A DNA stretch of 64,000 nucleotides from an uncultured Dehalococcoidales bacterium (lineage in GTDB: Bacteria > Chloroflexota > Dehalococcoidia > GIF9 > UBA5629): positions 13,680-77,679 of the forward strand of contig CAZJQG010000001.1 in NCBI GenBank assembly GCA_964548415.1. Reading direction: 5' to 3'. The stretch's first letter is position 1, and each line of letters opens with the position of its first letter. The position numbers and the translations under genes are program-made. The notes under the pieces were generated by a model. It saw only the letters and a list, made by a program, of their open reading frames with translations, searched no databases and was not told the origin of the DNA. Shown piece after piece: positions 5,982 to 62,247 of this stretch.

Positions 5982-5990
5982 TGTTATAAT
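5982..5990 (+). promoter_or_regulatory. extended -10 promoter TGTTATAAT for the DUF3800 gene
   Basis: Perfect TGnTATAAT 22 nt upstream of ATG 6012. AGGAG RBS at 5999-6003. Confidence 0.5.
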
Positions 5991-6011
5991 TATCGTATAG
6001 GAGATAGAAAT

Positions 6012-11751: not shown

Positions 11752-11825
11752 TATTTTTTCTCCCGACCTATTGCATACCATCATCACCGTGTGATATACT
11801 CACCTTCCAGTAAGACCTTTAAGTC

Positions 11826-13496
<1,671 letters not shown>

Positions 13497-13497
<1 letters not shown>

Positions 13498-14822: not shown

Positions 14823-14839
14823 AAATAAGGAGGTCCTTT

Positions 14840-18040: not shown

Positions 18041-18066
18041 GTGGTGACGGTGAAGGAGCCATCCGT

Positions 18067-46232: not shown

Positions 46233-46730
46233 CTAGTTAAGGTTAAATGAGGAGATAATATAGGGGAAGGGATAACCACTGTATCCCGCCGCATCTCCGG
46301 CTGTATCTAATTTATAGACGTGGTCCTCGGTGCTCTTGAAATAAGCCTCCCCGTGATATGGTCCCGTACCGGCATCGTAGTCGTATGACACGTACCAGTT
46401 CCAAAATCCCTCCATGGCTTTGTTTTCCAGCAGCGCGAAATCTACGTTACCAGTCCCCATAGCCATAACCCATCTCTGGGCGGCATCCTGTGCCGTCATT
46501 GGCCCTATCACGTCTATTCTCACGGATGCCAATCCCGACTGAGATTTTACGACGTATATCAAAGAATCCTTGGAAATTTCAGACTGCCAGTTTATCGGAT
46601 ATTTAAAGCTGTAGCCGCCGACATCGTTGGTATAAGTGGTATATCCGGACTGCCCACAAGCTGTGACAACTCCAGCCAGTAATACCACAACCCACAGAAG
46701 CGAAAACCAATGTTTGACGCTATTCCTCAT
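46233..46730 (-). CDS. secreted lipoprotein with a YxFxYPxxW domain
   Basis: Signal plus AGVVTAC lipobox. GYSFKYPINWQSE resembles EYGFSFEYPKDWVERPD in the 54488 and 55281 proteins. Confidence 0.5.
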   Translation of the reverse strand: MRNSVKHWFSLLWVVVLLAGVVTACGQSGYTTYTNDVGGYSFKYPINWQSEISKDSLIYVVKSQSGLASVRIDVIGPMTAQDAAQRWVMAMGTGNVDFALLENKAMEGFWNWYVSYDYDAGTGPYHGEAYFKSTEDHVYKLDTAGDAAGYSGYPFPYIISSFNLN

Positions 46731-46877: not shown

Positions 46878-48740
46878 ATGGCTCAGCCAAAGAAGTCACG
46901 CCCTAAGAAGCCTTTCCCGAAGAAACCTCTCGCCAAGAAATCTCTCGCCAAGAAATCCTTCGCAAAGAAATCTCTCAAAAAGATATCTGTCACCAAGAAG
47001 CCTCTCGTGAAGAAGGCTGAATCAAGAAAAGGCGATATCAATAAAGCTCGATACGAATCCAGACCATGGCTCAAGTTCTACCTCAAAGAAGTACCGGCAG
47101 ATGTTAAAATCCCGGAAAAATCAGCAGTGGAAACCTTTGATGAATCCACAACTAAATGGAAGGATAGGACTGCTGTAATATTTTACGGCAGGAAGATAAG
47201 TTACAGCGAATTAAGAGACCAGGTAGACAGGTTTGCAGCCGCTATGCAAGACCTGGGCGTAAAAAAAGGCGACCGGGTCGCACTGCTGCTACTAAATTCG
47301 CCACAATTCATCATAGCCTATTTCGGCGCCCTGAAGGCAGGAGCTGTACTGACGGCAATCAGCCCGGTATACGTCAGTCCTGAAATCAAACATCAAATTG
47401 AAGACAGCGGCGCCAGGATATTAATTTGTCAGGATATACTTTATGATAATGTGGAACGCTCCGGTGTTAAACTGGACAAGGTAATATTAACCAGTATCGC
47501 CGAATACCTGCCCGGTATGAAAAAGTTCCTGGGCAGCAGCATTTTAAGGGCAGTCTATCAGAAGATGGCTGCACCGCCTGTAGAAATCTTCCAGAGGGAA
47601 GGCTTCCATCAATTTCAGGACCTGATCAAGAAATACCCACCTAATCCGCCAAAAATTAAGTTCGATATACATAATGACTTGGTCACCCTACCCTATACTG
47701 GAGGGACCACAGGACTTCCCAAGGGTGCCATGATAACGCATTATAATATCACCGCAGCCCGATTCATAAGCTCGGAGTTCTGGGGCAATGTCGTAGAAGA
47801 AGGTAAAGAGACCATACTGGCATATTTACCCTTCTACCATATTTACGGTCAATCGGTGATTATGCTGGGAGGTATGTCTCAGGGCTATACTCTGGTAATT
47901 TTCACGACGCCGGACCTCGATGATATGCTTAACGCCATTGAAAGCTATAAAGTGACCCTTTTCTTCAGTGTTCCTTCACTGTATGAATATCTGAGAGACT
48001 ATCATCGGACAGATAGAGTCAACTGGAAGCGTATTAAGGTACTGGTTTCCGGTGCCGATGCTCTACTGGAAGATACAGCGGCAGGCTGGGAAAAACGGAC
48101 GGGTACCAAAATTCACGAAGGCTGGGGAATGACCGAGACCAGTTCCATCGGAATGGGCAGCCCTTACGGCAGACCGAAGATAGGTTCTTTTGGTGTACCC
48201 ATGTGCAATACCGTAGCTGGGATAATGTCCCCCGAAAGCACAAAATTTATGCCTCCCGGCGAGATAGGTGAACTGGTCGTCAGGGGTCCCCAGATAGCGA
48301 AAGGTTACTGGAAGAAACCTGAAGAGACCAAGAAGATGTTTATCACCCTCGACGGGCAAACATGGCTGCGTACCGGCGACCTGGCTCGAATGGACGAGGA
48401 CGGCTACTTCTTCTTTTACGATAGAAAACGCGACATGATTAAGTATAAGGGCCTGGCAGTATTCGCCAGAGAGGTTGAGGAAGTACTGAAAGCTCACCCG
48501 CAGATTAAGGAAGCAGGTGTAATAGGAGTTCCGGACCCCGAGGTGGGAGAGAAGGTAAAAGCCATAGTGGTTCTGGAATCCGACGCCAGAGGCAAGATTA
48601 GCGAAGAGGAAATTATGAAGTATTGCGCCCAGCAAATGGCGCACTACAAATGCCCCAAAATCGTTGAGTTCAGGGGCGAGGTCCCCAAGACTGACGTAGG
48701 CAAAGTTTCACGGCGGGAACTCAGGGAAGAAGAGCTTTAA
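46878..48740 (+). CDS. long-chain fatty-acid-CoA ligase (AMP-binding) with a Lys-rich repetitive N-terminal extension
   Basis: AMP-binding motif LPYTGGTTGLPKG. C-terminal K of PKTDVGKV. Strong RBS AAAGGAGGA. About 55-aa K-rich N-terminus before the region shared with its paralog (ESRPWLKFYL). Confidence 0.85.
   Translation: MAQPKKSRPKKPFPKKPLAKKSLAKKSFAKKSLKKISVTKKPLVKKAESRKGDINKARYESRPWLKFYLKEVPADVKIPEKSAVETFDESTTKWKDRTAVIFYGRKISYSELRDQVDRFAAAMQDLGVKKGDRVALLLLNSPQFIIAYFGALKAGAVLTAISPVYVSPEIKHQIEDSGARILICQDILYDNVERSGVKLDKVILTSIAEYLPGMKKFLGSSILRAVYQKMAAPPVEIFQREGFHQFQDLIKKYPPNPPKIKFDIHNDLVTLPYTGGTTGLPKGAMITHYNITAARFISSEFWGNVVEEGKETILAYLPFYHIYGQSVIMLGGMSQGYTLVIFTTPDLDDMLNAIESYKVTLFFSVPSLYEYLRDYHRTDRVNWKRIKVLVSGADALLEDTAAGWEKRTGTKIHEGWGMTETSSIGMGSPYGRPKIGSFGVPMCNTVAGIMSPESTKFMPPGEIGELVVRGPQIAKGYWKKPEETKKMFITLDGQTWLRTGDLARMDEDGYFFFYDRKRDMIKYKGLAVFAREVEEVLKAHPQIKEAGVIGVPDPEVGEKVKAIVVLESDARGKISEEEIMKYCAQQMAHYKCPKIVEFRGEVPKTDVGKVSRRELREEEL
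46893..47010 (+). repeat. degenerate 18-nt tandem repeat encoding (P/S)LAKKS units inside the CDS
   Basis: cctctcgccaagaaatct / ctcgccaagaaatccttc / gcaaagaaatctctc. Generates spurious ORFs on both strands (46822-47010 and 46883-47074). Confidence 0.7.
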
Positions 48741-49032
48741 CAGCCGCGTGACCCGACTGATTTTGGACATCAATAACTGTATAATATAGTGCTGTTCCAG
48801 GCTCTCTACTCAATTAGAGCCTGACAAAGGCTTGAAGGCAGATTCCCTTTTAGGGGATGTTAGAATTTGGTGCTATTATGAAAGTACCAGAGCGAAATCT
48901 GAAAGCGCTCGAGAATCCAATCTCATTTGTATTTGCATCTCTGTTTCGTACTATTATTTTTAGCCTCAGTTGCATTGGCAAAAACCAGTCGCTGTGCTAT
49001 ACTTTGCCACAAATAAAGGAGGAGGTGACGTA

Positions 49033-50742
49033 ATGGCGGTCGATCCTAACAAAACGTTATATGAATCTAGGCCATGGCTAAAGTTTTATCTCCCCGAGGT
49101 ACCGGCTGACATTAAGATCGAGGATAAGTCGGCGGTACAGGTCTTTGATGAAGCCACGGATAAATGGCAGGACAGGACTGCCATTGTGTTCTACGGCCGC
49201 AAGATGACCTATAAAGAGCTGAGAGAACATGTAGACAGATTCGCTACGGCTCTTCACGACCTCGGAGTACAAAAAGGCGACCGTGTGGCGCTATTGCTCC
49301 TCAATTCGCCACAATTCATTATCGCTTTTTTCGGTGCTTTGAAAGCGGGAGCCATTTTAACCGCTATCAGTCCGTTCTATGTTAGCCCTGAAATCAAGCA
49401 TCAAATCGAGGACAGCGGCGCCAAGTATATTATCTGCCAAGATAATCTCTACGATAATGTAGAACGGTCGGGCGTCCAACTCGACAAGGTTATCCTCGTT
49501 AACATTACCGATTACCTGCCCTGGCTAAAAAGATTCATGGGCAGCAGCGTTCTGCGTGCCGTCTATCAGAAGATGGCAGCTCCACCAACCGAGCTTTATA
49601 AAAGGGAAGGAATCTATAGTTTCAAAGAGTTGATCAAGAAGTATCCACCTAATCCACCGCAAGTAGAATTCAGCAAGGATGACCTGGTGACGCTTCCTTA
49701 CACCGGCGGGACCACAGGACTACCTAAAGGCGTCATGATAACTCACGAAAATATCAACGCATCAGAACACATCGCCGCAAATTTCTGGGGTGACATTACG
49801 CAGGAAGGTAAGGAGACTATTTTGGCCTACTTGCCTTTTTATCATATTTACGGGCAGGCGGTGCTAGTGGCCGGAGGCATAGCACAGGGCTACACTCTGG
49901 TGATATTTACTACAATCGATCTTGACGACCTGTTAAATGCCATGCAAACCTACCATGCCACTATTTTCTACAGCGTGGCTGCTTTATATGAATACCTCAG
50001 AGATTACCACCGTACCGACAGGGTAGACTGGAAAAAGGTTAAAGTTCTCGTTTCCGGCGCCGACATACTTCTTGAAGACACCGCCAAGGGATGGGAAAAG
50101 AGGACCGGCGCTAAAATCCACGAAGGTTGGGGTATGACGGAGACAACATCAGTTGGTATCGTTAATCCGTATGGCAAAACCAAAGTAGGCTCTTTCGGTG
50201 TGCCGCTTCCCAACACAGTCGCCGCTATAGTCGATCCCGACAGCGAAAAATTCTTCCCGATTGGCGAGATAGGCGAGCTTATTATTAAAGGCCCACAGGT
50301 TGCCAAAGGTTACTGGAAAAATGAGAAGGCAACCGACGAGACATTCGTTCATATAGACGGAGACGTATGGCTGCGTACCGGCGACCTATGCCGGATGGAT
50401 GAAGACGGCTACTTCTTCTTCTATGACAGAAAACGAGATATGATCAAGCACAAGGGGAAGGTGGTATTCGCTAGGGAAGTGGAAGAGGTTTTGGCGGCCC
50501 ATCCTCAAATCAAAGAGACAGGTGTCATTGGCGTAAAGGATGCAGAGGTAGGCGAGAAGGTTAAAGCCGTGGTTGTCCTTGAGACGGAAGCCAGAGGCAA
50601 GCTTTCAGAAATGGAAATAATGAAGTATTGCGCTGAAAGATTGCCCGATTATAAGTGCCCAACAATCATCGAGTTTAGAGGCGAGGTACCAAAGACAGAC
50701 GTGGGCAAAGTCTCTCGCCGAGAATTGAGAGAGGAGGACTAG
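49033..50742 (+). CDS. long-chain fatty-acid-CoA ligase (AMP-binding), paralog 2
   Basis: About 75% identical to the 46878 product. Start MAVDPNKTLYESRPWLKFY after the RBS AAGGAGGAGG. The 48970 start was rejected. Confidence 0.85.
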   Translation: MAVDPNKTLYESRPWLKFYLPEVPADIKIEDKSAVQVFDEATDKWQDRTAIVFYGRKMTYKELREHVDRFATALHDLGVQKGDRVALLLLNSPQFIIAFFGALKAGAILTAISPFYVSPEIKHQIEDSGAKYIICQDNLYDNVERSGVQLDKVILVNITDYLPWLKRFMGSSVLRAVYQKMAAPPTELYKREGIYSFKELIKKYPPNPPQVEFSKDDLVTLPYTGGTTGLPKGVMITHENINASEHIAANFWGDITQEGKETILAYLPFYHIYGQAVLVAGGIAQGYTLVIFTTIDLDDLLNAMQTYHATIFYSVAALYEYLRDYHRTDRVDWKKVKVLVSGADILLEDTAKGWEKRTGAKIHEGWGMTETTSVGIVNPYGKTKVGSFGVPLPNTVAAIVDPDSEKFFPIGEIGELIIKGPQVAKGYWKNEKATDETFVHIDGDVWLRTGDLCRMDEDGYFFFYDRKRDMIKHKGKVVFAREVEEVLAAHPQIKETGVIGVKDAEVGEKVKAVVVLETEARGKLSEMEIMKYCAERLPDYKCPTIIEFRGEVPKTDVGKVSRRELREED

Positions 50743-50745
50743 CAA

Positions 50746-51519
50746 ATGGCATTTCTCGAAGTCGAAGGTTTAACCAAGACCTTCGGTGGTTTGTCTGCGG
50801 TTAACAATGTCAGTTTCAAGATAGAAAGGGACGAAATTGTCGGCCTTATCGGCCCCAATGGAGCAGGGAAAACAACATTAATACGTTGTTTACTCGGCAT
50901 ATTGAAGCCGGACTCGGGTAAAGTCATTTTGGAAGGTAAGGATATAACCAAAAAACGTTCCTGGGAAATCGTGCAGAGAGGTATGGTGGGAACTTTTCAG
51001 GTGGTTAAACCGTTCCGCCATCTGCCAATCATAGCTAATGTCATGGTAGGCTGTCTTTGTCCCAGAATCACCAAGCGCGGTGAGTGGGTTAAAAGGGTCG
51101 AGGTGAAAGCACGTGATGCCCTGGAGTTCGTGGGCATCGCCGACCTGGCCCTGGAGCCGGCCTCCATCCTTTCTCACGGCGACTTGAAACGATTGGAAGT
51201 AGCCAGAGCTATTGCCACCGAACCGGAGTTACTTATCCTGGACGAGCCTTTCGGAGGACTGAACCCTGCAGAAACCGAGCTTGTTGCCAAGTCTATGAAA
51301 CGCTTGCACAAGGGTGGAAGGTTCGGCAGGCTGCACAGCGAAGGCCCGGCCATGCTAATCATTGAGCACAAACTTAGTGAGCTGATGAAAATAGTCGATA
51401 GGGTTATCGTGCTCAGCTTCGGCGAAATCATCGCCACGGGCACACCGGAAGAAATATCTAAAAACGCAACCGTTGTTGAAGCCTATACCGGTAAGGAGGT
51501 GCTCATTGCTAGAAGCTAA
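50746..51519 (+). CDS. livG: branched-chain amino acid-type ABC transporter ATP-binding protein (LivG-like)
   Basis: Walker A GPNGAGKTT, signature region and Walker B ILDEP. Confidence 0.8.
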   Translation: MAFLEVEGLTKTFGGLSAVNNVSFKIERDEIVGLIGPNGAGKTTLIRCLLGILKPDSGKVILEGKDITKKRSWEIVQRGMVGTFQVVKPFRHLPIIANVMVGCLCPRITKRGEWVKRVEVKARDALEFVGIADLALEPASILSHGDLKRLEVARAIATEPELLILDEPFGGLNPAETELVAKSMKRLHKGGRFGRLHSEGPAMLIIEHKLSELMKIVDRVIVLSFGEIIATGTPEEISKNATVVEAYTGKEVLIARS

Positions 51520-52255
51520 AAACGTAACTGTCCGTTACGACACCGCCATGGTGCTGGACGACGCCAACATCAATGTACAAAAGGGAGAGTTAGTCGGCCT
51601 CGTCGGCCCCAATGGAGCAGGGAAAACAACACTGCTCAGGGCTATGTCAGGGCTGATAAAGTGGGAAAAAGAAGTACTAAAAGGTACGAGGCAGGCGGAT
51701 ATCACCTTCGAGGGGACTATAGAATTCGAGGGTGAAAGAATCGAGAAACTTTCTGCATCCGATATAGCCAAGAGAGGCTTGCTTCTTTGTCCTGAACGAG
51801 GACGACCGTTTGTAGAAATGACAGTTAAGGATAACCTATTTGCCGGCGCTTATCTGGTCAAAGACCAGAAAGTCGTAAATGCCAGCCTGGCCAAAGTATA
51901 TGAGCTGTTTCCCCGTCTGAAGGAGCGACATAACCAAGTTTCAGGGACGCTTTCCGGCGGCGAAAGACAGATGTTGGCTATCGGCAGAGCGTTGATGAGA
52001 CGGCCCAAGCTAATGCTGGTAGATGAACCTTCCAGCGGACTGGCGCCAAAGCTGAAGCAGGACCTTTTCACGCGGGTGGAGGAGATTTACCACGAACTGG
52101 GCGTAACCATCTTATTGGCCGAACAGGATATTAGTTTTGCCTTTGACCTGTCCGTCAGAAACTACGTCATGTCCAGGGGACATATCATCGCCCACGGTAC
52201 CGCTAAAGAATTGCTCTCGGATGAGACTATAAGAAAGACCTACCTGGGTCTATAA
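51509..52255 (+). CDS. livF: branched-chain amino acid-type ABC transporter ATP-binding protein (LivF-like)
   Basis: Walker A GPNGAGKTT. LSGGERQMLAIGRAL. Walker B LVDEP. TTG start after GGTAAGGAGG. Confidence 0.8.
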   Translation, partial: LEAKNVTVRYDTAMVLDDANINVQKGELVGLVGPNGAGKTTLLRAMSGLIKWEKEVLKGTRQADITFEGTIEFEGERIEKLSASDIAKRGLLLCPERGRPFVEMTVKDNLFAGAYLVKDQKVVNASLAKVYELFPRLKERHNQVSGTLSGGERQMLAIGRALMRRPKLMLVDEPSSGLAPKLKQDLFTRVEEIYHELGVTILLAEQDISFAFDLSVRNYVMSRGHIIAHGTAKELLSDETIRKTYLGL

Positions 52256-52278
52256 ACTTTATTTACAGGATAGAAAAA

Positions 52279-52309
52279 GCTCACCTACTTTTGGTAGGTG
52301 AGCTTTTTT
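52279..52309. terminator. bidirectional rho-independent terminator between the convergent liv-like operons
   Basis: 10-bp stem gctcacctac / gtaggtgagc with a 5-nt loop. Flanked by A5 upstream and T6 downstream. Confidence 0.6.
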
Positions 52310-52336
52310 ACGTCTACTTATAAGTAACCGTAAGAT

Positions 52337-53407
52337 CTAGTACAAATCCGCTCCGCAAGCCCGGCACGCATGACGCCACGATACATTGGTTAGCTTACAT
52401 CTAGGGCACTGTCTCTCGATCTTATCGCGAATCCAAACTGCGATACCTTCCGGCATGAATAAAAGAATCAGGATTACGATGACAGCAAAAATCAACAACC
52501 TGTACTCGGAGATAAAACGTAAAGACTCGGTCAGCGGATAAAGGATGTAAGTCCCTACTACTGCGCCGTAGATGCTTACGATGCCTCCAAAGACAGTCCA
52601 TATTATCGCCTGAAATGACAGGGTTAGGTCCAAACTAGAAGGGCCAGCTATTCTGAGAAAGTGTGCGTACATAGCACCTGATAAACCAGCGAAGAAACCG
52701 CCCACGGCAAAAGCGAATAGTTTGTAAGCTATGGTATTTATACCGCTGGCGCGCGCTGCAATCTCGTCCTCACGGATGGCATGCATAATAATCCCTGTGC
52801 GCACCAGCGAACTTTGGGCATCGGTTAGCTTCCACATTATGAGTACCGAAACCAGCATAACCACCACCGAAATGTAGTAATCGGCTACCCTTGAGTCAGT
52901 CATCCGGTCGATGCCGGAAATGCCTAACTCACCGCCGGTAAACTGGGTGAAAGAGAAAATGACCCCGAGAAGAATAAGAGGAAATGCCAGGGTTACCAGC
53001 GCCAGATATGGTCCTCTCAACCTCAAGGCCGGTAAGCACATAATAACGCCGGCGACCACTGCTGCTAACGCGCCAATCGGTATAGTTGCCCATATCGGCC
53101 AGTGCGGTCCCAGGGGAGCTCCCCTGTTCAGCATGGCCGTCACATAGGCAGCTACCCCGAAGAAAAGCGCATGACCGAAGTTCATCTGTCCGGTATAGCC
53201 GGATATAAAATCCCAGCTTACAGCGAAGATAACGAACATGTTGGTGAAAATCAGCATGCGCAGTATATAAGACTGCTGGGTAAATGCAGGAAAGAGGAAC
53301 AGAAGCACGAAGAAAATAAGGGCTATCAACCTCCCTGGAATGGCTATTATGTCACCTTGAAAATCTTTAAATAATCTACTTAGCACTTTACAATCTCTCC
53401 TCTTCAA
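52337..53407 (-). CDS. livM: ABC transporter permease (LivM-like) with a C-terminal zinc-ribbon extension
   Basis: Multiple TM helices with LivM-like conservation. C-terminus CPRCK...CRACG. Confidence 0.75.
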   Translation of the reverse strand: MKRRDCKVLSRLFKDFQGDIIAIPGRLIALIFFVLLFLFPAFTQQSYILRMLIFTNMFVIFAVSWDFISGYTGQMNFGHALFFGVAAYVTAMLNRGAPLGPHWPIWATIPIGALAAVVAGVIMCLPALRLRGPYLALVTLAFPLILLGVIFSFTQFTGGELGISGIDRMTDSRVADYYISVVVMLVSVLIMWKLTDAQSSLVRTGIIMHAIREDEIAARASGINTIAYKLFAFAVGGFFAGLSGAMYAHFLRIAGPSSLDLTLSFQAIIWTVFGGIVSIYGAVVGTYILYPLTESLRFISEYRLLIFAVIVILILLFMPEGIAVWIRDKIERQCPRCKLTNVSWRHACRACGADLY

Positions 53408-54281
53408 ATACTATGCCAAATAGACCCTCAGGCCTGAAAATTAGCACGATTATCATAACCAGTAAGGCGGCGGCCCCTTTGAGAAAGGCACCGGTCGGTA
53501 GTAAGAAGACAACCAGTGTCTCAACCAGCGCCAGAATGAAGGCACCTATCACACTCCCCTTAATACTGCCCAGGCCTCCCAGCGTAATTATGGCCATTAC
53601 CATAACGAACGGCGGCCATAACATTCCCGGTTCCAGTACCATAGTTGGTGCCACCAGGATGCCGGCAATGGCAGCCAGCGCTGCAGCGATACCCATAACC
53701 AGGAATAGTATGGTGGACACATTTATTCCCATCAGATTTGCGATTTCCGTATCCTGGGCCGTCGCTCTAATGGCAATGCCCAGTCTTGTTTTTTGCAAAA
53801 GCGCCCATACTATCAATAGGACTATGCCGGCAGCTACAAACACCAGTACATTCTGATAGGCGACCTTTACACCCAGTATTTCCCAGTACCCGGTCACAAA
53901 GGATGGCGCTGAGCGATACTGGCCGGAGAAAATAATAACCATAATCTGCTGAAAAGCCATAGCCACAGCCAGTGTTATAAGCATCACAGTAACATGGTGC
54001 TCTCGTACACGATCGATGAAGAGTTTATATACGGCAAGCCCGATACCGGTAGTAATAAGTAAAGAGAGGACAATTGCCACAGCGGGGTTGCTAAGAGGCG
54101 CATATTTTCCCAGAAATGCGATGTCCGTAAAAGTAAATAAGCCGTAGGCGGCCAGCATGTAGAACGAGGTATGCGACAGCTGAAGCACACGGGCTACGCC
54201 GAATATCAGTGCAAAACCGAGAGCCAGCAGTGCATACACGCTTCCCTTTACCAGAGTTTGAACAATAATTCCTTCAATCAT
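53388..54281 (-). CDS. livH: ABC transporter permease (LivH-like)
   Basis: MIEGIIVQTLVKGSVYALLALGFALIFG is a canonical LivH N-terminus. Confidence 0.85.
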   Translation of the reverse strand: MIEGIIVQTLVKGSVYALLALGFALIFGVARVLQLSHTSFYMLAAYGLFTFTDIAFLGKYAPLSNPAVAIVLSLLITTGIGLAVYKLFIDRVREHHVTVMLITLAVAMAFQQIMVIIFSGQYRSAPSFVTGYWEILGVKVAYQNVLVFVAAGIVLLIVWALLQKTRLGIAIRATAQDTEIANLMGINVSTILFLVMGIAAALAAIAGILVAPTMVLEPGMLWPPFVMVMAIITLGGLGSIKGSVIGAFILALVETLVVFLLPTGAFLKGAAALLVMIIVLIFRPEGLFGIVFEEERL

Positions 54282-54487
54282 ACTCTACGTTACCTAACCT
54301 TCACTGTTGAATTGACTGATCTACTGGTACCTAGTTGTTGACACATATATACTAAAGAGCAGCCGTAAGCACATCATATAGCTACTCGATTGCCGGCCTA
54401 AATAATACCAGCTAACAAGTTGTTTATCAAGCCTTTGAAGACCCCAGGACTCGTAGCGCCCGGGGTCTTCAAATAAGCCATGAATCT

Positions 54488-55159
54488 CTATTGGAATTTG
54501 ACTGTACTGAGTATCTCTTCGTATAGCGTCTCGTTGAACGGCTCGAATTCTGTCACGGTGAATACCATGAAGCGGATACGCTTGGCGCCGCGGTCAACAT
54601 CCAGACATAGGCCCTGTGCCTGATAGCCGGAGGAAGAGATATAGCCAAGCTGGTACATATAGCCCGTGCTGCCGTCCTGAGTGGTGACTGGAGTGATGTC
54701 GGTCAGCACTTTGGGGCTCTGGCCGCCAATCAGGCCAACACTAGACTTTATCCAGTCCGCCGATTCTGGGGCATCGGCATCGAACTGGATGACAACAATT
54801 CCCGGAACAAAGGCGCTGACGCTAAACGCTACAACGTGATGGGGAGTGGTCAACATGTCAGGACGTTCCACCCAGTCCTTGGGATACTCGAAACTGAAGC
54901 CGTATTCTGCGTTGGTATACGTAGCGGCCTCAAATGATAGGGTAGCAGGTGGTGTTAGTTGTTTTCCCCCTGTTGTTGGCGGTGTGGTTGGCGGCGGTGT
55001 GGTCGGTGGTGGTGTTGTTGGTGGGGGTGTTGTTGTTGGCGTTGTGGTCGGCGGGGGCGTCGTGGGTGGAGTGGTTGGTGCTGCGCAGGCCGATACTACC
55101 AGGCCCAGCACGAGCATGACGGCTAAAAATACGGTTACGATTCTAAACGATTTTTTCAT
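54488..55159 (-). CDS. lipoprotein with a (T/P)-rich linker and a C-terminal YxFxYPxxW domain
   Basis: Lipobox VSAC. PTTPPPTTTPTTTPPPTT repeats. The C-terminal 150 aa are about 75% identical to the C-terminal extension of the 55281 binding protein. Confidence 0.6.
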   Translation of the reverse strand: MKKSFRIVTVFLAVMLVLGLVVSACAAPTTPPTTPPPTTTPTTTPPPTTPPPTTPPPTTPPTTGGKQLTPPATLSFEAATYTNAEYGFSFEYPKDWVERPDMLTTPHHVVAFSVSAFVPGIVVIQFDADAPESADWIKSSVGLIGGQSPKVLTDITPVTTQDGSTGYMYQLGYISSSGYQAQGLCLDVDRGAKRIRFMVFTVTEFEPFNETLYEEILSTVKFQ

Positions 55160-55280
55160 CGTCCCTCCTTTAATATTTTATTATTACGGGACATTGCCGT
55201 CCCGATTGCTTCCTTCATTTTTAGGATGGAGACTCCGGGCCGTTGCCGGCCCGGAGTTCTTCTTATAAGCAAACTGGACA

Positions 55281-57203
55281 CTACTTGAAAGTAACGGTGT
55301 TTACTATCTCCTCAAACAGCGCTTGATCGTAGTCCGCGAATGCAGTTACGGTATAAACCATGAAGCGTAGCCGCTTGCCATCGCGGTCTACGTCCTTGCA
55401 CCAACCCTCTGCTTCGTAGCCCGTTGACGAGATGTAACCGAGTTTATAAGTATAGGCCTTGCTGCCATCTGGAGTTGTTGCATCCGTGATATCCGTAAGC
55501 ACTTTGGGGCTCTGACCGCCGATTTGTCCCACGCTTGCCTTTATCCAGTCGACGGATTCAGGAGCATCAGCGTCGAACTGCATTGCCACAATCCCCGGAA
55601 CAAAGGCGCTTACACTGAACGCTGCAAGATGATGTACGGTTGTCACCATATCCGGCCGTTCCACCCAGTCACTGGGGTACTGGAAGGTGAAACCATATTC
55701 AGTGTTGGTGTACGTTTTGGCTGCAAATGAGGTGGCTGCTGCCGCGGTCTCTTCGCCAGCCGCTGGTGTCGCCTCTGGTGTCGCCGCAGGCGTCTCTGGT
55801 GCCACAGGCGCAGTTCCACCTTCAGCCTTCAGTTTATCAAGCAACAATGGCGGCACTACCCATTTGTGAATGCCACCGTATTTTACATCCTTCCACGTGG
55901 CAGGATATCCAGCAGCGACAGAAGCATCAGCGTAATCCGCGTTCGGCCAGACGGCTAGCTGTTCTCCAGCCACCCACTGCGTGGATATGCCCGTGGTTAT
56001 GCCCGGACCGTAAGGCACATCATGAGGATTGCCGCCGGGCGCATCCATAGTTGTAAACTGGAAGGGTGTGGCCAGGGTTGAGACCTGGTTTGTCTTCTCG
56101 AGTTCGGCAACCATCATGTCTGAATCCCAGGTTCCGTCACTCTTAATGGCCGCTGTTCCGGCTCTCTCCAGAGCTGATTTAATGATATAAATAGCATCGT
56201 AAGTGCCAGCATTGTATGCAGGTACCTGGCCATTCAGCTCTATAAATTTATCAATGAAGGGCAATGTCAGCGGATCCACTTCCAGTCCCCTTGCATAGGA
56301 ATTCAGTGAAGTATCGTACTCACCTAACCCGTTGGTATTCTTCCAGAAGCCGGGGTCGCTCTGTGACTCGACGTTAATGCCTACTGAAGCCGCCGGTATC
56401 TTCAACTCACCGTATGACCTGGCGTACGGGATGCCCACGGGACCCGAGAAAATCTCACAGATTATATCAGTATTTTTGGACTGCATGTCTGTCATTTCCG
56501 CGGTAAGCTCGGTAGCTGTGGGGGAAGGTCTCCAGGTACCTACAACCTCCATCCCCAACTTTTTCGGTACGTAAGCGTTCATTATTCCCGTGATCGAGTC
56601 AGCCCATTTAGCTCCTTCAGTACATACAGCCACTTTCAGCTTTCTCTGTATGCCAGTCTCTTCTTTAATTCTGGCCTGTGCCATAGCCAATGTCATTACC
56701 ACATTGTCAGCCAGCTTGGCACTGACGAACGGCGTGACTCTGAAGGTGTACTTATAGCGCTCGTAATCCGATTTTACCGGTGCTACCAGTATCTGGTCAG
56801 CGGCGCCACAGATCATGAAAATCATTTTGTTGTCCATGGCAACTTCTTGCATAGGGATCACAGCTTCCGTTCGGAAACCGCCGATAACAAAATTTGCGCC
56901 ATCCACCGTTATCAGTTTTTCCATAGCTGACGTAGCATCGGTAACGCTGTTAATCTCATTCGAATCCGATTGAATCAGCTCAATCTGATACGACTTGTCG
57001 CCAATCTGTATACCACCGGCTGCATTAATTTCATCACGGGCTTGCGTGGCGCCCCACCAGTGGTTCTGCCCCTGTAGATATTGCATCGGCCCGATAACGC
57101 CTATTTTTATCACGTCGCCTGCTTCTGTGGTGGGTTTGCAGGCAGGAATAACCATGGCAACAAGCATGAGGCAGGTAAACAATAAAAATAGAATTTTTTT
57201 CAC
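55281..57203 (-). CDS. ABC transporter substrate-binding protein (Leu/Ile/Val-binding family) with an extra C-terminal YxFxYPxxW domain
   Basis: Lipoprotein signal. Type I periplasmic binding fold over about 430 aa. A/P/T-rich linker. C-terminal domain paralogous to 54488. Confidence 0.8.
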   Translation of the reverse strand: MKKILFLLFTCLMLVAMVIPACKPTTEAGDVIKIGVIGPMQYLQGQNHWWGATQARDEINAAGGIQIGDKSYQIELIQSDSNEINSVTDATSAMEKLITVDGANFVIGGFRTEAVIPMQEVAMDNKMIFMICGAADQILVAPVKSDYERYKYTFRVTPFVSAKLADNVVMTLAMAQARIKEETGIQRKLKVAVCTEGAKWADSITGIMNAYVPKKLGMEVVGTWRPSPTATELTAEMTDMQSKNTDIICEIFSGPVGIPYARSYGELKIPAASVGINVESQSDPGFWKNTNGLGEYDTSLNSYARGLEVDPLTLPFIDKFIELNGQVPAYNAGTYDAIYIIKSALERAGTAAIKSDGTWDSDMMVAELEKTNQVSTLATPFQFTTMDAPGGNPHDVPYGPGITTGISTQWVAGEQLAVWPNADYADASVAAGYPATWKDVKYGGIHKWVVPPLLLDKLKAEGGTAPVAPETPAATPEATPAAGEETAAAATSFAAKTYTNTEYGFTFQYPSDWVERPDMVTTVHHLAAFSVSAFVPGIVAMQFDADAPESVDWIKASVGQIGGQSPKVLTDITDATTPDGSKAYTYKLGYISSTGYEAEGWCKDVDRDGKRLRFMVYTVTAFADYDQALFEEIVNTVTFK

Positions 57204-57494
57204 TTAGCCATTAACCTCCTAAAACGTTGCAAAGGGTCTCATTGCTGGCAAACACAGATCGACCCCGGTTTGCCCCCAAACGCTAAATCTCATTCACTCG
57301 ATAATACCACCCCCTTCTCCCGAAATCTTATTTTTAATATTCATACGGTAAATATGTGCACTTAAAAATACACTGCAATCGGAGGTTTAAATGACATTAT
57401 ACCACAGCGTGTCAATACTAAAAGTACCCCAACCACGCTCAGCATATACCCTTTTTTCGAAGCCGTCAACTGGTTGTAAGTCCAGGCTAAATAC

Positions 57495-58697
57495 TTATAA
57501 ACCGACGATGGCGACGCTGACAATATTCATTGCCGGAAAACCACCCATATTATGTGTCAGCCCCAGCCTGGGATTCTTCAACTGGCGTTCAGGCAGCTGG
57601 GCTTTCCCCTGCAGCTGTTTATACATTTCGTACATCATCCTCAGCCCCGAAGCACCGATGGGATGTCCGAAGCATTTTAGCCCTCCATCGGGTTGAATTG
57701 GCTGCTCACCGTTGAGGTCAAAGCGCCCGGCTTCGATATCTTCTTTCACCTTGCCGCGAGGGCTGAACTGTAAATCTTCCATAGTTACCGCCTCGGTGAT
57801 AGAAAAGCAGTCATGTACCTCGGCCATACTGATCTCATTTCTCGGGTCTTTGACTCCTGCCTCCTTGTATGCCAGAATCCCGGCGCGAAGCCCGGTTTCA
57901 ACGTGAGCGCCATCCCACTTTGTGTACATTAACTCTTCGCCGGAACTCAACGCAATCTGTAGTGATTTAATGTACACAGGATCGGGCCTGAACTTCTTGG
58001 CCAGTTCTGCAGTTGTCACAATTGCAGCCGCAGAACCATCGCTAACGCCACAGCAGTCGAAAAGGCCCAGTGGCCAGGCTATAATAGGCGCATTCATTAC
58101 TTGCTCGACCGTGATTTCCCTACGCAAGTGTGCCTTGGGATTGAGCGAGCCGTTGTGATGGCTTTTAGCCGAGACCCTGGCCAGCATTTTTTTACCGTCT
58201 TCGGGGCTAAGCCCGTAAACCGCGAAATACCGCGTAGCCATCATGGCAAAACTTCCCGGCGCGGTGATTTTGGGCATTATCAGAGCGTTTCTTGCACCAA
58301 GAAGACCCTGGCCACCCGGCAGGCCGCCATAACCCGTGTCCTTTAGTTTCTCCACCCCCAAGGCCAGAGCGATGTCACACGCTCCCGACGCGACTCCGTA
58401 ACAAGCACCTCTAAGAGCCTCGGTGCCGGTGGCACAAAAGTTTTCCACTCTGGTAACGGGAATAAAAGGCAACTTTAATGCCAGCGCCATCGAGGTTGCA
58501 CCCTTGCCGACGCTCTGTTCCTCGAAATGTACGCCGAACCAGGCTGCCTCGATATCTTTCTTCTCAATACCCGCATCCTCGAGGCACTCCTGGAATGACT
58601 CTACCATCAAGTCCTCGGCACCTTTGTTCCAGAGTTCTCCAAACTTCGTGCAACCCATCCCGATGATAGCTACTTTATCTTTAATTCCCTCTGCCAT
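57495..58697 (-). CDS. thiolase (SCP-x/archaeal-type acetyl-CoA C-acetyltransferase-like)
   Basis: N-terminus MAEGIKDKVAIIGMGCTKFGE with the active Cys. C-terminal GHPIGASG. Confidence 0.85.
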   Translation of the reverse strand: MAEGIKDKVAIIGMGCTKFGELWNKGAEDLMVESFQECLEDAGIEKKDIEAAWFGVHFEEQSVGKGATSMALALKLPFIPVTRVENFCATGTEALRGACYGVASGACDIALALGVEKLKDTGYGGLPGGQGLLGARNALIMPKITAPGSFAMMATRYFAVYGLSPEDGKKMLARVSAKSHHNGSLNPKAHLRREITVEQVMNAPIIAWPLGLFDCCGVSDGSAAAIVTTAELAKKFRPDPVYIKSLQIALSSGEELMYTKWDGAHVETGLRAGILAYKEAGVKDPRNEISMAEVHDCFSITEAVTMEDLQFSPRGKVKEDIEAGRFDLNGEQPIQPDGGLKCFGHPIGASGLRMMYEMYKQLQGKAQLPERQLKNPRLGLTHNMGGFPAMNIVSVAIVGL

Positions 58698-58730
58698 TTC
58701 TAATCTCCTCCGTATCGTTAGTTCAACCCA

Positions 58731-60170
58731 TCAAGCACGCACAGGCATGGCTTTCCAGGAGTAGCCGTATACACCATGGCCCTCATCAACATATCTCCTG
58801 CGAAAAGTCATTTCAACGGGCATCCCTACTTTAATTGATTCGAGATCACAGTCGGTGAGGTCGAACCAGAACCTGCCTCCTCCATTAAAATCTACGAATC
58901 CGTATATTGCCGGCGGGTCTATGCTGGCTGCCAGGTTGTCACCGGTATAGGTGAACAGCACGCCTTTCCTGTCAGAAAAGCGGTAGCCTTCCATCTGGTC
59001 TACGGCGCCGCAATCGGGATTGACACATATTCTCTGGCGTGGATACTGTGGCGTTCCACACTTCTTACACTTGGAGCCACATAATGCCAGAACCGTTTCT
59101 CGTTCTCTGAATAGCGTGGACATTGGGGTCCGAAAATCTACTTCACCTCTCATTCCCAGATCCATAGGCGCCAGATTACGAAACGCCAGGTATTTTTCGT
59201 AACTGGCAAGCTCTTTTTTCGTTTCTAAATTTTTACTGACGCCGCGGTGGCCCGGTAAATTTTTAATGTTTTCCGTTACCTGTAAAAACATGGCATCGCT
59301 GCCATTGCCGAAGCTGGCCACAAGAATCTTGTCGCCGGGCTTAGCCTTTTCCAGTACCTCTACTAGCATCATCAGTGGAGATGCAGAACCTGTATCTCCA
59401 ACTTTGTCAACCAGCGATGTTGGGAGCTGGCGTGGTTCAGCACCCAATCGCTTGATAATTGCGGCATGCTCCCTGGGATAAAGGTCCGGAAATGCAATTG
59501 TGGCAAAATCGGCAATGGCCAGATTATATTTTTTTAGCAATCCGGAAATCGCCTCAGGCAGCATCTTGGTATAGCCTTCATCGCGAATGAACCTGTCTTC
59601 CCAGGAATGCTCAAATTTCTCAGTAGCCGCCCTCCAGCGATCGGGAAAATCGTAAGATACCGAGTAAAAACCCTCCAGCGTAGCGATCAAATCCTGGCTA
59701 CCGGTTAGTAAAGCTGCGGCACCGTCACCGTACAGCGGCTCTTGCGGGCTGCCCGGTTTACTGACTCGGCAATCGGAAGCACAGACCAGCACATTTGACG
59801 TGCCGCTATTGACAGCATCGAAAGCAGACAGAAGCGCACTTGTGCCTGACTTGGTAGAGCCCAGGAAATCACTCGTCCTTATGTTACTAGGCAGGTCAAG
59901 GGCAGCAGCCACTAGTGCCGAGTTCTGACGTAACATATAAGGCTGGCTGGTGGTTGCCAAGAAAAGGCCGCCTAGCTCCTCCCTTTTTATATTGCTCAGA
60001 CAATCCATGCCGGCCGCCACTGCCATGCTTAGAGTATCCTCGTCATGGTTTGCCACCGCGTTCTCCCCCGGCGGAGGAAAACTGCCTAAGAATCCAATAG
60101 CCGTAAAAATTGTATTGTGACTAATTCTGTACCTTGGGATGTAAGCACCATACGATTTGATACCTACCAT
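58731..60170 (-). CDS. fused HMG-CoA-synthase-like condensing enzyme + DUF35 (OB-fold / zinc-ribbon) protein
   Basis: N-terminus MVGIKSYGAYIPRYRI with the thiolase-fold Cys region (VCASDC). C-terminal CxxC...CxxC ribbon (CGSKCKKCGT...CVNPDCG) followed by an OB-fold region. Confidence 0.75.
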   Translation of the reverse strand: MVGIKSYGAYIPRYRISHNTIFTAIGFLGSFPPPGENAVANHDEDTLSMAVAAGMDCLSNIKREELGGLFLATTSQPYMLRQNSALVAAALDLPSNIRTSDFLGSTKSGTSALLSAFDAVNSGTSNVLVCASDCRVSKPGSPQEPLYGDGAAALLTGSQDLIATLEGFYSVSYDFPDRWRAATEKFEHSWEDRFIRDEGYTKMLPEAISGLLKKYNLAIADFATIAFPDLYPREHAAIIKRLGAEPRQLPTSLVDKVGDTGSASPLMMLVEVLEKAKPGDKILVASFGNGSDAMFLQVTENIKNLPGHRGVSKNLETKKELASYEKYLAFRNLAPMDLGMRGEVDFRTPMSTLFRERETVLALCGSKCKKCGTPQYPRQRICVNPDCGAVDQMEGYRFSDRKGVLFTYTGDNLAASIDPPAIYGFVDFNGGGRFWFDLTDCDLESIKVGMPVEMTFRRRYVDEGHGVYGYSWKAMPVRA

Positions 60171-60396
60171 GAAGCAACCTCCTGATTAGCAGTAGATTGA
60201 AGAAAAAAGTCAGCCAACGTAGACTAACACAGCCTTCGCTCACAGTCAACATTACTAACTCACAAACAGCCAATATAGGAATAAATTCCTATACCTGCAT
60301 TTCAGACTTGACGTGTAAAATCTACAAGTTGTACTATCGTATCCACTCTCAGGGGGTAATCCGTTAGTGCAATAAGCTACTGGAGAAAGGGGAACC

Positions 60397-61995
60397 ATGA
60401 ACGTCGGCAGTCTCATCGCAGAAAACGTTAAGAGATTTGGCGAGTACGAAAGCATCTATTTTGAGGGCAGGTGGTATACAAATTCTGAAATAAATCTCAC
60501 CTCTAATAAACTCGGTAACGTTTTGAAATCACTCGGCATAGCCAAAGGTGACCGGGTGGCAGTACAGATGCCCAACAGCCCACCGGTTTTTTCGGCCTTT
60601 CCCGCTATATATAAGGTAGGCGGCGTCGTAGTACCATTGAATCCACTGCTACGTCCCGACCAGGCAGCATACATATATCATGACTGCGGAGCCAAAGCGC
60701 TTCTGACCAGTTCTGATTTTCTGGGCTGGGTAATGGAAGCACGGAAACAAGCTCCGGACCTGAAACATATAATTGTGACCGACAAGGATGATATTCCCGA
60801 TACTTTGTCGTACGGCAAGCTAATGTCCGAAAGCCCTGACGAATTGATAGTGGTAGAAACCGATAACGATGACCTTGCGGCTCTGATCTATACAGCGGGT
60901 ACCACGGGATATCCTAAAGGAGTAATGCATACACATTTTTCGCTTTACATTAATGCTTTATGCTTTTTTGAATACGTACTTTTTAATCTGGGTACGACCA
61001 TAAACCAGAATATTACGCATATAGACCCAAAGACACTTCAACCAATCGAAGATTCCATTATGACTACCGGCGTGAGCCGTTCCAATGTCAGCCTCGGAGT
61101 ATTGCCGCTTTCCCATTCGTACGGCATCGCATTCAGCATGGGCGGTTCATTCGTTGGCGGTAAAGCCATCGTACTAAAATGGTGGAATCCCGAGGAAGCT
61201 CTGAAAATGATTCAGGCTTTCAAGGTTACGCACATGGCAGCTGTGCCAACAATGTACGTACAGTTGCTGGACCATCCGGATTTCGACAAGTATGATATCA
61301 GTTCACTGCTGGGTTGCAACTCAGGAGGCGCACCACTTCCGGTAGAAGTCGCGCTGAGGTGGAAAGAAAAGACAGGCGTTGATATCAGAGAAGGATGGGG
61401 ACTTACCGAATCGGGGGCTACTACCACCGGACAGCCCGTCGACCTCCTACCCAAATATGGTTCTGTTGGCAAAAACTTACTTAGATGCAACAGCGTCAAA
61501 GTATTTGATGACAATGAAAAGGAGCTTCCTCTAGGAGAACGCGGTGAAATCGTAGTCAAAGGCCCTACACTGATGAAAGGCTACTGGAATCTACCGGAAG
61601 AGACGGAACAGGCCATGAAAGGCGGCTGGCTTCATACCGGTGATGTGGGCTATGTAGATGAAGATGGCTATGTATATTTAACCGATAGGAAGAAGGATAT
61701 TATTATTCGCGGCGGAGAAAATGTATCTCCACGGGAAATTGAAGATGTACTAAGCACAAATCAGAAAGTTGCTGAAGCCGGTGTCATCGGAGTACCCGAT
61801 AAAGTCTACGGGGAAGAAATAAAAGCATTCGTTGTGCTTAAAACCCGGGAGAACGCAACCGAAGAAGAACTGATAGCTTATTGTAAACAGTCTTTGCCCA
61901 CCTTCAAAATACCGAAGACGGTACAGTTTATCGACACATTGCCTAAAAATCTTTTGGGCAAATTATTGAGGGCTGAACTGCGTAAGCTTGGTTAA
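60397..61995 (+). CDS. AMP-dependent synthetase/ligase (acyl-CoA synthetase)
   Basis: YTAGTTGYPKG AMP motif. C-terminal PKTVQFIDTLPKNLLGKLLR. Confidence 0.85.
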   Translation: MNVGSLIAENVKRFGEYESIYFEGRWYTNSEINLTSNKLGNVLKSLGIAKGDRVAVQMPNSPPVFSAFPAIYKVGGVVVPLNPLLRPDQAAYIYHDCGAKALLTSSDFLGWVMEARKQAPDLKHIIVTDKDDIPDTLSYGKLMSESPDELIVVETDNDDLAALIYTAGTTGYPKGVMHTHFSLYINALCFFEYVLFNLGTTINQNITHIDPKTLQPIEDSIMTTGVSRSNVSLGVLPLSHSYGIAFSMGGSFVGGKAIVLKWWNPEEALKMIQAFKVTHMAAVPTMYVQLLDHPDFDKYDISSLLGCNSGGAPLPVEVALRWKEKTGVDIREGWGLTESGATTTGQPVDLLPKYGSVGKNLLRCNSVKVFDDNEKELPLGERGEIVVKGPTLMKGYWNLPEETEQAMKGGWLHTGDVGYVDEDGYVYLTDRKKDIIIRGGENVSPREIEDVLSTNQKVAEAGVIGVPDKVYGEEIKAFVVLKTRENATEEELIAYCKQSLPTFKIPKTVQFIDTLPKNLLGKLLRAELRKLG

Positions 61996-62007
61996 TTAAT
62001 AAAAAAA

Positions 62008-62081
62008 CGACCCCGATGGGATTCGAACCCACGATCTCCACCGTGACAGGGTGGCATGTTAGTCCGCTACACCACGGGGCC
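62008..62081 (-). tRNA. tRNA-Asp (anticodon GUC), CCA not encoded
   Basis: Manual cloverleaf on the minus strand: acceptor GGCCCCG/CGGGGUC. Anticodon stem CCACC/GGUGG. Loop CUGUCAC. T arm GUGGG-UUCGAAU-CCCAU. Followed by U7. Confidence 0.85.
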
Positions 62082-62247
62082 GCGCTGGAAAGATCCAACC
62101 TCAAGAGTCTATCAATACGACGAATGTGATGTCAAGCCAGCAGGCACAGAAATAATCCTCGTTCAACAGCTCGTTCTATAAATTATTATTTGATTTTTCC
62201 ATCCGGGAACTATAAACTAGTTCTTCAAAATAATTTGGAGATAAAAT

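Follow-up and report, generated by a model that had tools for sequence, protein, structure and literature searches.

The 64,000-nucleotide stretch of an uncultured Dehalococcoidales bacterium analyzed here (assembly GCA_964548415.1, contig CAZJQG010000001.1, positions 13,680 to 77,679; hereafter the window) carries a cluster of eleven genes between positions 46878 and 61995, identified from the open reading frame (ORF) listing and Pfam scans. The cluster encodes three acyl-CoA ligases, a Liv-type ABC importer, a thiolase and a 479-amino-acid protein in which a domain resembling 3-hydroxy-3-methylglutaryl-CoA (HMG-CoA) synthase (HMGS) is fused to a DUF35 module. The HMGS-like domain is almost certainly a conserved pseudoenzyme, while the thiolase encoded beside it retains a complete catalytic set. 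The reading that we favor, with a probability of about 0.55 for the whole chain, is of a catabolic locus in which an organic acid would be imported, activated to its CoA thioester, oxidized by enzymes encoded elsewhere in the genome and finally cleaved by a thiolase paired with a pseudo-HMGS-DUF35 scaffold.

The N-terminal part of the fusion protein (residues 1 to ~335) is an HMGS/PhlA-like domain, joined by a linker to a DUF35 zinc ribbon and OB-fold (~361–479) with zinc-ribbon cysteines at C368, C371, C382 and C387. Searching the PDB with phmmer, residues 2–332 matched PhlA (9skh_A; 1.6e-39) followed by archaeal HMGS (6esq_I; 7.6e-33), and residues 361–477 matched the archaeal DUF35 chain (6esq_E; 5.6e-13). 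The AlphaFold2 (AF2) model was compact and two-domain, with a predicted local distance difference test (pLDDT) score of 90.8 and a predicted template modeling (pTM) score of 0.93, and its top Foldseek matches were PhlA, archaeal HMGS and MucA. The model has the thiolase-superfamily HMGS fold, with target-normalized template modeling (TM) scores of 0.89–0.90 to the HMGS chains of 6esq/6et9. The catalytic tetrad of HMGS, however, is lost: E82/C114/H238/N270, as defined by Liao et al. (PMC12960953) and in the M. thermolithotrophicus numbering rebuilt from the PDB alignment, corresponds to T74/T106/P228/D259 in the fusion. This loss extends to the family, with Glu at the first tetrad position and Cys at the second in none of 170 relatives and His at the third in one, whereas the zinc-ribbon cysteines were retained in at least 160 of the 170. 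The fusion also scored below all three HMGS equivalog cut-offs (NF003274, 218.9 against 244; TIGR00748, 139 against 353; TIGR01835, 50.5 against 360).

An archaeal enzyme with the equivalent quadruple mutation makes no HMG-CoA (PMC12960953). With its tetrad fully replaced the fusion cannot condense via the HMGS mechanism, and the description of this domain as an HMGCS-like condensing enzyme, given in an earlier note made from the sequence of this DNA, is contradicted by the T, T, P and D residues and by the equivalog scores. The ratio of nonsynonymous to synonymous substitution rates (dN/dS) against an orthologue of 92% identity was 0.04 for the whole protein, 0.047 for the HMGS-like domain and 0.020 for DUF35, ratios that are rough and if anything overestimated since dS was ~1. 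The strong purifying selection, the retained zinc cysteines and the confident model together indicate that the dead domain is still functional and not decaying. A genuine HMGS/thiolase channeling complex feeding the mevalonate pathway, as in archaea, would fit the architecture and fold shared with 6ESQ/6ET9 and the label "hydroxymethylglutaryl-CoA synthase" that databases attach to homologues, but with all four catalytic residues absent and the scores under the curated cut-offs this role is effectively refuted. The window pair does share with the archaeal complex its three modules and their folds, including the zinc ribbon and OB-fold of DUF35, and the archaeal thiolase is the top PDB match to the window thiolase. 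It differs in that DUF35 is a separate chain in archaea and in that the HMGS active site is destroyed here, so that no channeling to HMG-CoA would take place.

The partner thiolase has an intact catalytic set, comprising Cys88 (within C-A-T), His295-Asp-Cys-Phe298 and Gly344-His345-Pro. It scored 622.9 bits against NCBIfam PRK06157 (cut-off 403) and its best PDB match was chain 6esq_A, the archaeal acetyl-CoA acetyltransferase (ACAT), at 9.5e-58, compared to 1e-20 for PhlC. The Cys, HDCF and GHP motifs were invariant in 69 of 69 thiolases encoded beside fusion genes, and the dN/dS of the thiolase was 0.008. HDCF is the motif of SCP2-thiolases and is replaced by YDHF or YDCY in the steroid aldolases (PMC12329534); an aldolase of the Ltp2/Sal type was ruled out by Cys88 and HDCF.

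The same residues bear on the possibility that the pair is a Friedel-Crafts C-acyltransferase acting on a small aromatic or tetramic-acid acceptor, as do PhlACB of P. protegens and MucABC of Streptococcus macacae (PDB 5M3K/5MG5, 9SKH, 9VBO/9VBT). The HMGS-like subunits of these enzymes also lack the tetrad and gave the top sequence and structure matches to the N-terminal domain of the fusion, which is slightly nearer to PhlA than to archaeal HMGS and shares with PhlA its pattern of tetrad loss, including the Asp at the N270 position. Their thiolase subunits (PhlC and MucB), however, have lost HDxF and gained acceptor-binding residues, and both systems consist of three separate proteins, DUF35 included, encoded in secondary-metabolite clusters (PMC12960953). 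The window thiolase retains HDCF and is far closer to archaeal ACAT than to PhlC, DUF35 is fused, and Pfam scans detected no polyketide synthase (PKS) or non-ribosomal peptide synthetase (NRPS) domains in the cluster or elsewhere in the window. A PhlACB-like acyltransferase was rejected on the retained HDCF and the lack of PKS/NRPS genes, and we consider such an activity very improbable.

The closest characterized counterpart comes from a survey by Liao et al. (Nat Commun, 2026), who mined 1,030 bacterial HMGS/ACAT/DUF35 loci (PMC12960953). In Pseudomonas fluorescens they described a fused HMGS-DUF35 protein without the tetrad and an ACAT that keeps Cys, HDxF and GHx; the complex cleaves acetoacetyl-CoA and forms neither HMG-CoA nor acetoacetyl-CoA (PMC12960953). 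It was termed an "evolutionary intermediate" and assigned to no pathway (PMC12960953). The window pair agrees with this ACAT/HMGS-DUF35 class in every sequence-level feature: the two domains are joined in one polypeptide, the tetrad is lost, the adjacent thiolase has Cys, HDxF and GHx, and no PKS/NRPS genes are nearby. We assign it to the class with high confidence, a likeness judged by these features. The differences are that the host belongs to an anaerobic Chloroflexota lineage and that the pair adjoins a Liv-type importer and three ligases. A DUF35 module is also the obligate partner of an SCP2-type thiolase-fold enzyme in BbsAB (benzoylsuccinyl-CoA thiolase, PDB 7PXP) and in Ltp2-ChsH2 and Sal-Shy of steroid side-chain degradation. 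None of these has an HMGS-like pseudoenzyme domain, and the window proteins score far below the BbsB and BbsA NCBIfam models (134 against a cut-off of 750 and 27.6 against 250, respectively).

Fusions of this kind had been taken to be uncommon, but they form a large family of which one member was biochemically characterized in 2026. A search of 5.8 billion proteins returned 4,171 matches at E ≤ 1e-10, with the best 120 being 464–494 amino acids long and of the fused architecture. When representatives at 50% identity were searched exhaustively, 634 clusters matched at E ≤ 1e-30 (136 of the top 150 with 440–520 amino acids), and at least 549 fusion loci were found in species-representative genomes. 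The hosts include Dehalococcoidia, Anaerolineae, many Desulfobacterota (Desulfosarcina alkanivorans PL12 with two copies, Smithella, Syntrophaceae, Desulfomonilaceae), Bacillota (Syntrophomonas, Dethiosulfatibacter), Actinomycetota and one Hadesarchaeon. The closest homologues (74–92% identity) were almost all from metagenome-assembled genomes (MAGs) of Dehalococcoidia or Chloroflexi. One protein with 77% identity to the window fusion (P0060) is labeled "Candidatus Methanomethyliaceae archaeon" and a locus with 51% identity (L047) comes from a Hadesarchaea MAG; these archaeal labels would reflect either mis-binning or inter-domain transfer.

When the window proteins were compared by tblastn with 83 loci, 72 had the thiolase gene beside the fusion gene and in the same orientation, mostly directly downstream; the exceptions were mostly at contig ends. 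This adjacency spans Chloroflexota, Desulfobacterota, Bacillota and others, and by this measure thiolase and fusion are an obligate module. For those of loci L009–L083 that carry both genes, we scanned the two ORFs on either flank of the pair against Pfam. The resulting 207 flanking ORFs included 29 acyl-CoA dehydrogenases (ACADs), 23 MaoC/MFE-2 hydratases, 20 short-chain dehydrogenases/reductases (SDRs), 12 proteins with SCP2 domains, 10 family-III CoA-transferases, eight TetR regulators and four electron transfer flavoprotein (ETF) subunits. Of the 60 loci that span 10 kb or more, 45 had one or more ACAD, MaoC or SDR genes no further than 10 kb away, and in 21 an ACAD occurred together with a hydratase or SDR. 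Judged by gene content, the family neighborhood is of the beta-oxidation type and is similar to the bbs operon and the gene sets for steroid side chains, in which ACADs and SDRs likewise occur in pairs alongside MaoC hydratase pairs and CoA-transferases. About 16 loci encode a longer fusion protein, most by ~430 amino acids; ORFs of ~910–960 amino acids were seen in L053, L055, L061, L068, L071, L072, L074, L079, L080 and L082. One such protein (P0123; L086, 6449–9184; 911 amino acids) adds SDR and SCP2 domains, and adjacent genes encode an MFE-2-like protein and an ACAD resembling ACOX. The four-module form (pseudo-HMGS, DUF35, SDR, SCP2) was found mainly in Desulfobacterota, including Desulfosarcina alkanivorans PL12.

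The positions of the genes and of two RNA hairpins in the cluster are given in Table 1. Ligase 1, ligase 2 and the LivG- and LivF-like ATPases follow one another on the plus strand, while the transcription order on the minus strand is fusion, thiolase, substrate-binding protein (SBP), a 223-amino-acid lipoprotein, livH and livM. The inventory of three ligases, importer, thiolase and fusion listed in the earlier note was confirmed with strong Pfam support, as was the convergent arrangement of the ligase/ATPase and permease/SBP genes. The list had missed the 223-amino-acid lipoprotein gene and an extra C-terminal domain of the SBP, and it had placed the thiolase and fusion downstream, whereas both precede the SBP and permease genes in the minus-strand order.

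Table 1. Genes and predicted RNA hairpins of the cluster (window coordinates).
Feature	Position	Strand	Evidence
Acyl-CoA ligase 1, FadD-like, ANL superfamily	46878–48740	+	Pfam AMP-binding 2.1e-90, AMP-binding_C 1e-19
Acyl-CoA ligase 2, tandem paralogue of ligase 1	48970–50742	+	Pfam AMP-binding 4e-94
LivG-type ABC ATPase	50746–51519	+	ABC_tran 1e-30, BCA_ABC_TP_C tail 2.9e-8
LivF-type ABC ATPase, overlapping livG	51473–52255	+	ABC_tran 1.1e-26
Bidirectional intrinsic terminator between livF and livM	52277–52310	both	Fold energies, sequence
LivM-type permease	52337–53407	-	BPD_transp_2 9.5e-46
LivH-type permease, 20-nt overlap with livM	53388–54281	-	BPD_transp_2 1.6e-36
223-amino-acid lipoprotein with PsbP-fold domain	54488–55159	-	Translation, BLASTP, AF2 model
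Strong hairpin just past the SBP stop codon	55231–55258	-	12-bp stem, 9 GC pairs
Substrate-binding lipoprotein (SBP), 640 amino acids	55281–57203	-	Peripla_BP_6 2.1e-23
SCP2-type (archaeal ACAT-like) thiolase	57495–58697	-	Thiolase_C_1 4.7e-30, Thiolase_N 3.3e-18
479-amino-acid HMGS-like/DUF35 fusion	58731–60170	-	Pfam ACP_syn_III_C, zf-ChsH2, OB_ChsH2_C
Acyl-CoA ligase 3, different subfamily	60397–61995	+	AMP-binding 5.4e-86

The 3-nt spacing between ligase 2 and livG and the overlap of livG with livF fit co-transcription, and the claim that the ligases are co-transcribed with the Liv ATPases gains from the retention of the tight ligase 2-livG coupling in relatives. Fusion and thiolase are co-oriented with a gap of 33 nt, and a 226-nt spacer separates the fusion gene from the divergent ligase 3. 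The terminator consists of an A-run, a 10-bp GC-rich stem and a T-run at the meeting point of the convergent units, and folds with −26.7 kcal/mol on the plus strand and −22.3 kcal/mol on the minus strand (z −7.6 and −8.0; none of 200 shuffles as good). The hairpin after the SBP gene (−26 kcal/mol, z −6.6) has no U-tract and is possibly an attenuator or an mRNA-stabilizing element. A promoter-like site at ligase 2 (48975–49003) is a consensus match only, and the sigma-70/terminator consensus scan as a whole, which was weakly above shuffled sequence (38 against 24.8 promoter-like and 21 against 17.6 terminator-like sites), gives a hint only. An Rfam scan of the window found no regulatory RNA within the cluster. 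A tRNA-Asp(GTC) gene (62007–62082, minus strand) that starts 12 nt past the ligase 3 stop codon marks the right edge of the cluster.

All three ligases carry AMP-binding and AMP-binding_C domains. Ligases 1 and 2 share 74% identity, which makes them recent tandem paralogues; their alignment begins at residue 53, and the true start of ligase 1 is probably ~40–50 codons inside the ORF. Ligase 3 has 31% identity to ligase 2. None of the three reached any NCBIfam equivalog cut-off: the best model for ligase 1 was PRK08314 (482 bits, cut-off 705), and ligase 3 fell slightly short of PRK06187 (468.2 bits, cut-off 476).

The importer is a complete set of the Liv/HAAT type (TC 3.A.1.4), with two BPD_transp_2 permeases, LivG and LivF ATPases and a Peripla_BP_6 SBP. 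The best NCBIfam models for the livG and livF products were LivG (199.6 bits, cut-off 362) and LivF (193.7 bits, cut-off 441). The SBP is lipid-anchored and consists of a Peripla_BP_6 domain (~32–387), a linker of P, A, T and E, and a C-terminal PsbP-fold domain (486–640). Against the LivJ/K model NF011933 it scored 26.8 bits, with a cut-off of 477, and the importer is probably not a Leu/Ile/Val system. In Rhodopseudomonas palustris the ligands of most COG0683 SBPs were aromatic, fatty or dicarboxylic acids and not branched-chain amino acids, and some of these SBPs are encoded next to a coumarate-CoA ligase gene or the pim operon for beta-oxidation (PMC3223731). This precedent, together with the low LivJ/K score, makes organic-acid import plausible, and the earlier suggestion that the cluster does more than simple amino-acid transport is probably right. 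As in R. palustris, where RPA3723–3725 accompany pimFABCDE and the SBP RPA1789 accompanies coumarate-CoA ligase (PMC3223731), a five-component Liv-type importer is linked to acyl-CoA ligase or beta-oxidation genes. It differs from these systems in that the window SBP is very divergent, lipid-anchored and extended by a PsbP-fold domain, and in that the ligases would be translationally coupled to the ATPases. The SBP had a dN/dS of 0.15 against locus L087 compared to 0.008–0.05 for its neighbors, and an amino-acid identity of 61% compared to 89–98% for the thiolase, ATPases and ligases. This fast evolution, ~10-fold that of the enzymes and ATPases, could reflect shifting ligand specificity.

The PsbP-fold domain of ~155 amino acids is present in two copies (55284–55748 and 54491–54955, both on the minus strand). 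The second copy belongs to the 223-amino-acid lipoprotein, in which a signal peptide bearing a lipobox Cys is followed by a linker rich in Pro and Thr and by a C-terminal domain with 70% identity to SBP residues 486–640 (BLASTP 7e-78). The AF2 model of this domain (pLDDT 93.6) had PsbP/CyanoP as top Foldseek PDB matches (TM-score ~0.72), with DcrB, Mog1, Apa, LpqN and Mtc28 as more distant structural matches. Only ~14 true homologues of the lipoprotein were found, all hypothetical or unannotated, and relatives have one or two stand-alone PsbP-fold genes. Just outside the cluster, a 165-amino-acid lipoprotein (46233–46730, minus strand) shares the TYTN..GYSFKYP.NW motif and is a third, distant copy of the domain (hhalign probability 79%, E 1.6e-5). 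Its gene immediately precedes those for an NMT1/THI5-type binding protein (45176–46153), a HAMP-GAF-PAS histidine kinase (42723–45101) and a response regulator (42325–42672). In this host, PsbP-like lipoproteins may have a general role as partners of binding proteins.

The full layout, from ligase 3 through fusion, thiolase, SBP, small lipoproteins, LivH, LivM, LivF and LivG to the tandem ligases, recurs in loci L001–L004 and L087, where the fusion is 79–92% identical and one or both tandem ligases are present, as far as the contigs extend. In L088 (86% identity) the gene order is the same up to the contig end. The ligase 2-livG spacing is 1–7 nt in all relatives examined, with a tight junction in L001 and L003, and ligase 3 is divergent from the fusion gene in L001–L004, L006, L008, L087 and L088; in L005 its homologue lies ~9 kb away. 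The interval between thiolase and SBP is a variable slot. It holds no gene in the window (291 nt), L001 or L087 and one SDR gene in L003 (12736–13644), L004 and L088 (12718–13497). In L008 (12711–15565) it holds a MaoC-type hydratase pair and two SDRs, reaching the end of the retrieved DNA, and in L005 (12470–18023) a hydratase pair, two SDRs and two ACADs, with a MarR regulator upstream. That the beta-oxidation genes of these relatives sit exactly at the thiolase-SBP junction, and co-oriented with it, is the strongest sign that importer and enzymes belong together, and a functional link of the thiolase pair with the importer and ligases is likely.

In the catabolic chain that we favor, the lipid-anchored SBP would first bind an extracellular organic acid. 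Its ligand is most likely a carboxylic acid (fatty, branched, dicarboxylic or aryl-substituted) and not Leu, Ile or Val. The LivHM permeases and LivGF ATPases, assigned by family, would import this acid, and one of the three ANL-type ligases, likewise placed by family, would form its CoA thioester; ligases 1 and 2 are the candidates whose synthesis is coupled to that of the ATPases. The thioester would then be oxidized to a 3-oxoacyl-CoA by enzymes encoded elsewhere in the genome, of a kind that relatives encode inside the locus, and cleaved with CoA by the SCP2-type thiolase, predicted to work in an obligate complex with the fusion. By analogy to the solved homologous complexes, the pseudo-HMGS and DUF35 module is most likely a scaffold and solubility partner, possibly contributing half of a shared CoA-binding chamber, and no HMG-CoA would be made.

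Several observations weigh against this chain. Neither the cluster nor the rest of the 64-kb window encodes a dehydrogenase or hydratase for such a pathway. Thiolases are reversible and their direction is not readable from sequence. Among solved structures, the SBP had no relative closer than E 3e-5, too distant to point to a ligand. The 291-nt gap between thiolase and SBP, which holds an extended −10-like TGgTATAAT, suggests separate promoters, and the minus strand may thus comprise more than one transcription unit. The association of pair, importer and ligases was found only in relatives in which the fusion is at least 77–79% identical; at ≤61% identity the pair was never beside Liv genes (tblastn, 83 loci). 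In the close relatives the unrelated flanking TIG, ThiC, CinA, AdoMetDC, arginase and GreA genes are also syntenic, and shared ancestry alone could explain the association.

The last three of these points, together with the much faster evolution of the SBP compared to the enzymes, favor a juxtaposition without a shared pathway, in which the Liv system would import amino acids or another nitrogen compound, the ligases would serve acyl-CoA metabolism at large, the fusion and thiolase would serve housekeeping beta-oxidation and the genes would be neighbors by descent. We regard this as the foremost alternative, though an unlikely one, because ligase 2 and livG lie within a few nucleotides of each other in every relative examined, beta-oxidation genes occupy precisely the thiolase-SBP interval in relatives, and the SBP is far from the LivJ/K model.

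The reversibility of thiolases leaves room for an anabolic role, in which the imported acid, once activated, would be elongated by Claisen condensation at the thiolase in a CoA-dependent process independent of acyl carrier protein (ACP), akin to the ACAT step of archaea or to their KT/DUF35-SDR-MaoC fatty-acid synthase complex. The window thiolase is most like the biosynthetic archaeal ACAT, its cluster has no ACAD, and in relatives the pair has SDR and MaoC genes as neighbors. In Sulfolobus acidocaldarius, KT/DUF35 with an SDR reductase and a MaoC dehydratase forms a synthase (bioRxiv 10.1101/2024.07.05.601840). The window encodes none of the SDR ketoacyl-CoA reductase, MaoC dehydratase and NADPH enoyl-CoA reductase of this archaeal KT/DUF35-ACR-HCD synthase. 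Relatives, however, have ACADs and ETF beside the pair instead of a synthase-type NADPH enoyl-CoA reductase. HMGS, the pulling reaction of the archaeal complex, is dead here, the characterized fused homologue cleaved acetoacetyl-CoA and made none from acetyl-CoA (PMC12960953), and an importer with three ligases is the usual signature of catabolism. Elongation is on this evidence improbable. A more elaborate version is still less probable, namely that in this Dehalococcoidia clade the pair runs in the condensing direction as a bacterial counterpart of the archaeal CoA-based, ACP-independent fatty-acid synthase, elongating imported short- or medium-chain acids that the transporter-coupled ligases have activated, with the pseudo-HMGS holding the CoA arm and the PsbP-fold domains passing hydrophobic ligands to the SBP. 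The uptake-activation-condensation route envisaged in the earlier note thus divides, with uptake and activation plausible and condensation by an HMGCS-like enzyme refuted at residue level; the thiolase has the sole intact active site, its characterized homologue is thiolytic and the family context is beta-oxidation-like.

Other features of the window lie outside the cluster. It encodes PilM/PilN, a bacterial A24 prepilin peptidase and PpiC-type rotamases, which together with a PyrR-regulated pyr operon mark the host as bacterial. This pyrR-pyrB-pyrC-carB-pyrK-like operon (11940–18840) is preceded by a PyrR-binding RNA (11812–11941, plus strand; Rfam RF00515, 61.4 bits), an ordinary arrangement. 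A bacterial non-homologous end joining pair is formed by Ku (37143–37910, plus strand) and a three-domain LigD with phosphoesterase, ligase and primase-polymerase domains (39002–41683, plus strand), with a DUF72 gene between them. At 29875–31206 (plus strand) and 32519–33292 (minus strand), a bacterial serpin (Pfam 3.5e-114) is encoded in the vicinity of genes for a trypsin-like serine protease and for an M28 peptidase. The region 3816–6830, with genes for an HTH and M78 (ImmA/IrrE-type) regulator and a DUF3800 protein, has a GC content of 0.43–0.45 compared to ~0.50 elsewhere and may be a small mobile or defense-related island.

Members of this very large family are routinely labeled "hydroxymethylglutaryl-CoA synthase", a label from which the mevalonate pathway could be falsely ascribed to Dehalococcoidia, Desulfobacterota and syntrophs. 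The residue test shows that they are pseudoenzymes. The advance is a modest and testable refinement, consisting of an annotation correction and a suggested role for orphan bacterial HMGS/ACAT/DUF35 loci, and does not describe a new kind of system. The purifying selection on the dead domain, the invariant thiolase residues and the ACAD/MaoC/SDR/SCP2 neighborhoods argue that these loci encode working thiolase complexes of the beta-oxidation type, especially in anaerobes, and not evolutionary intermediates.

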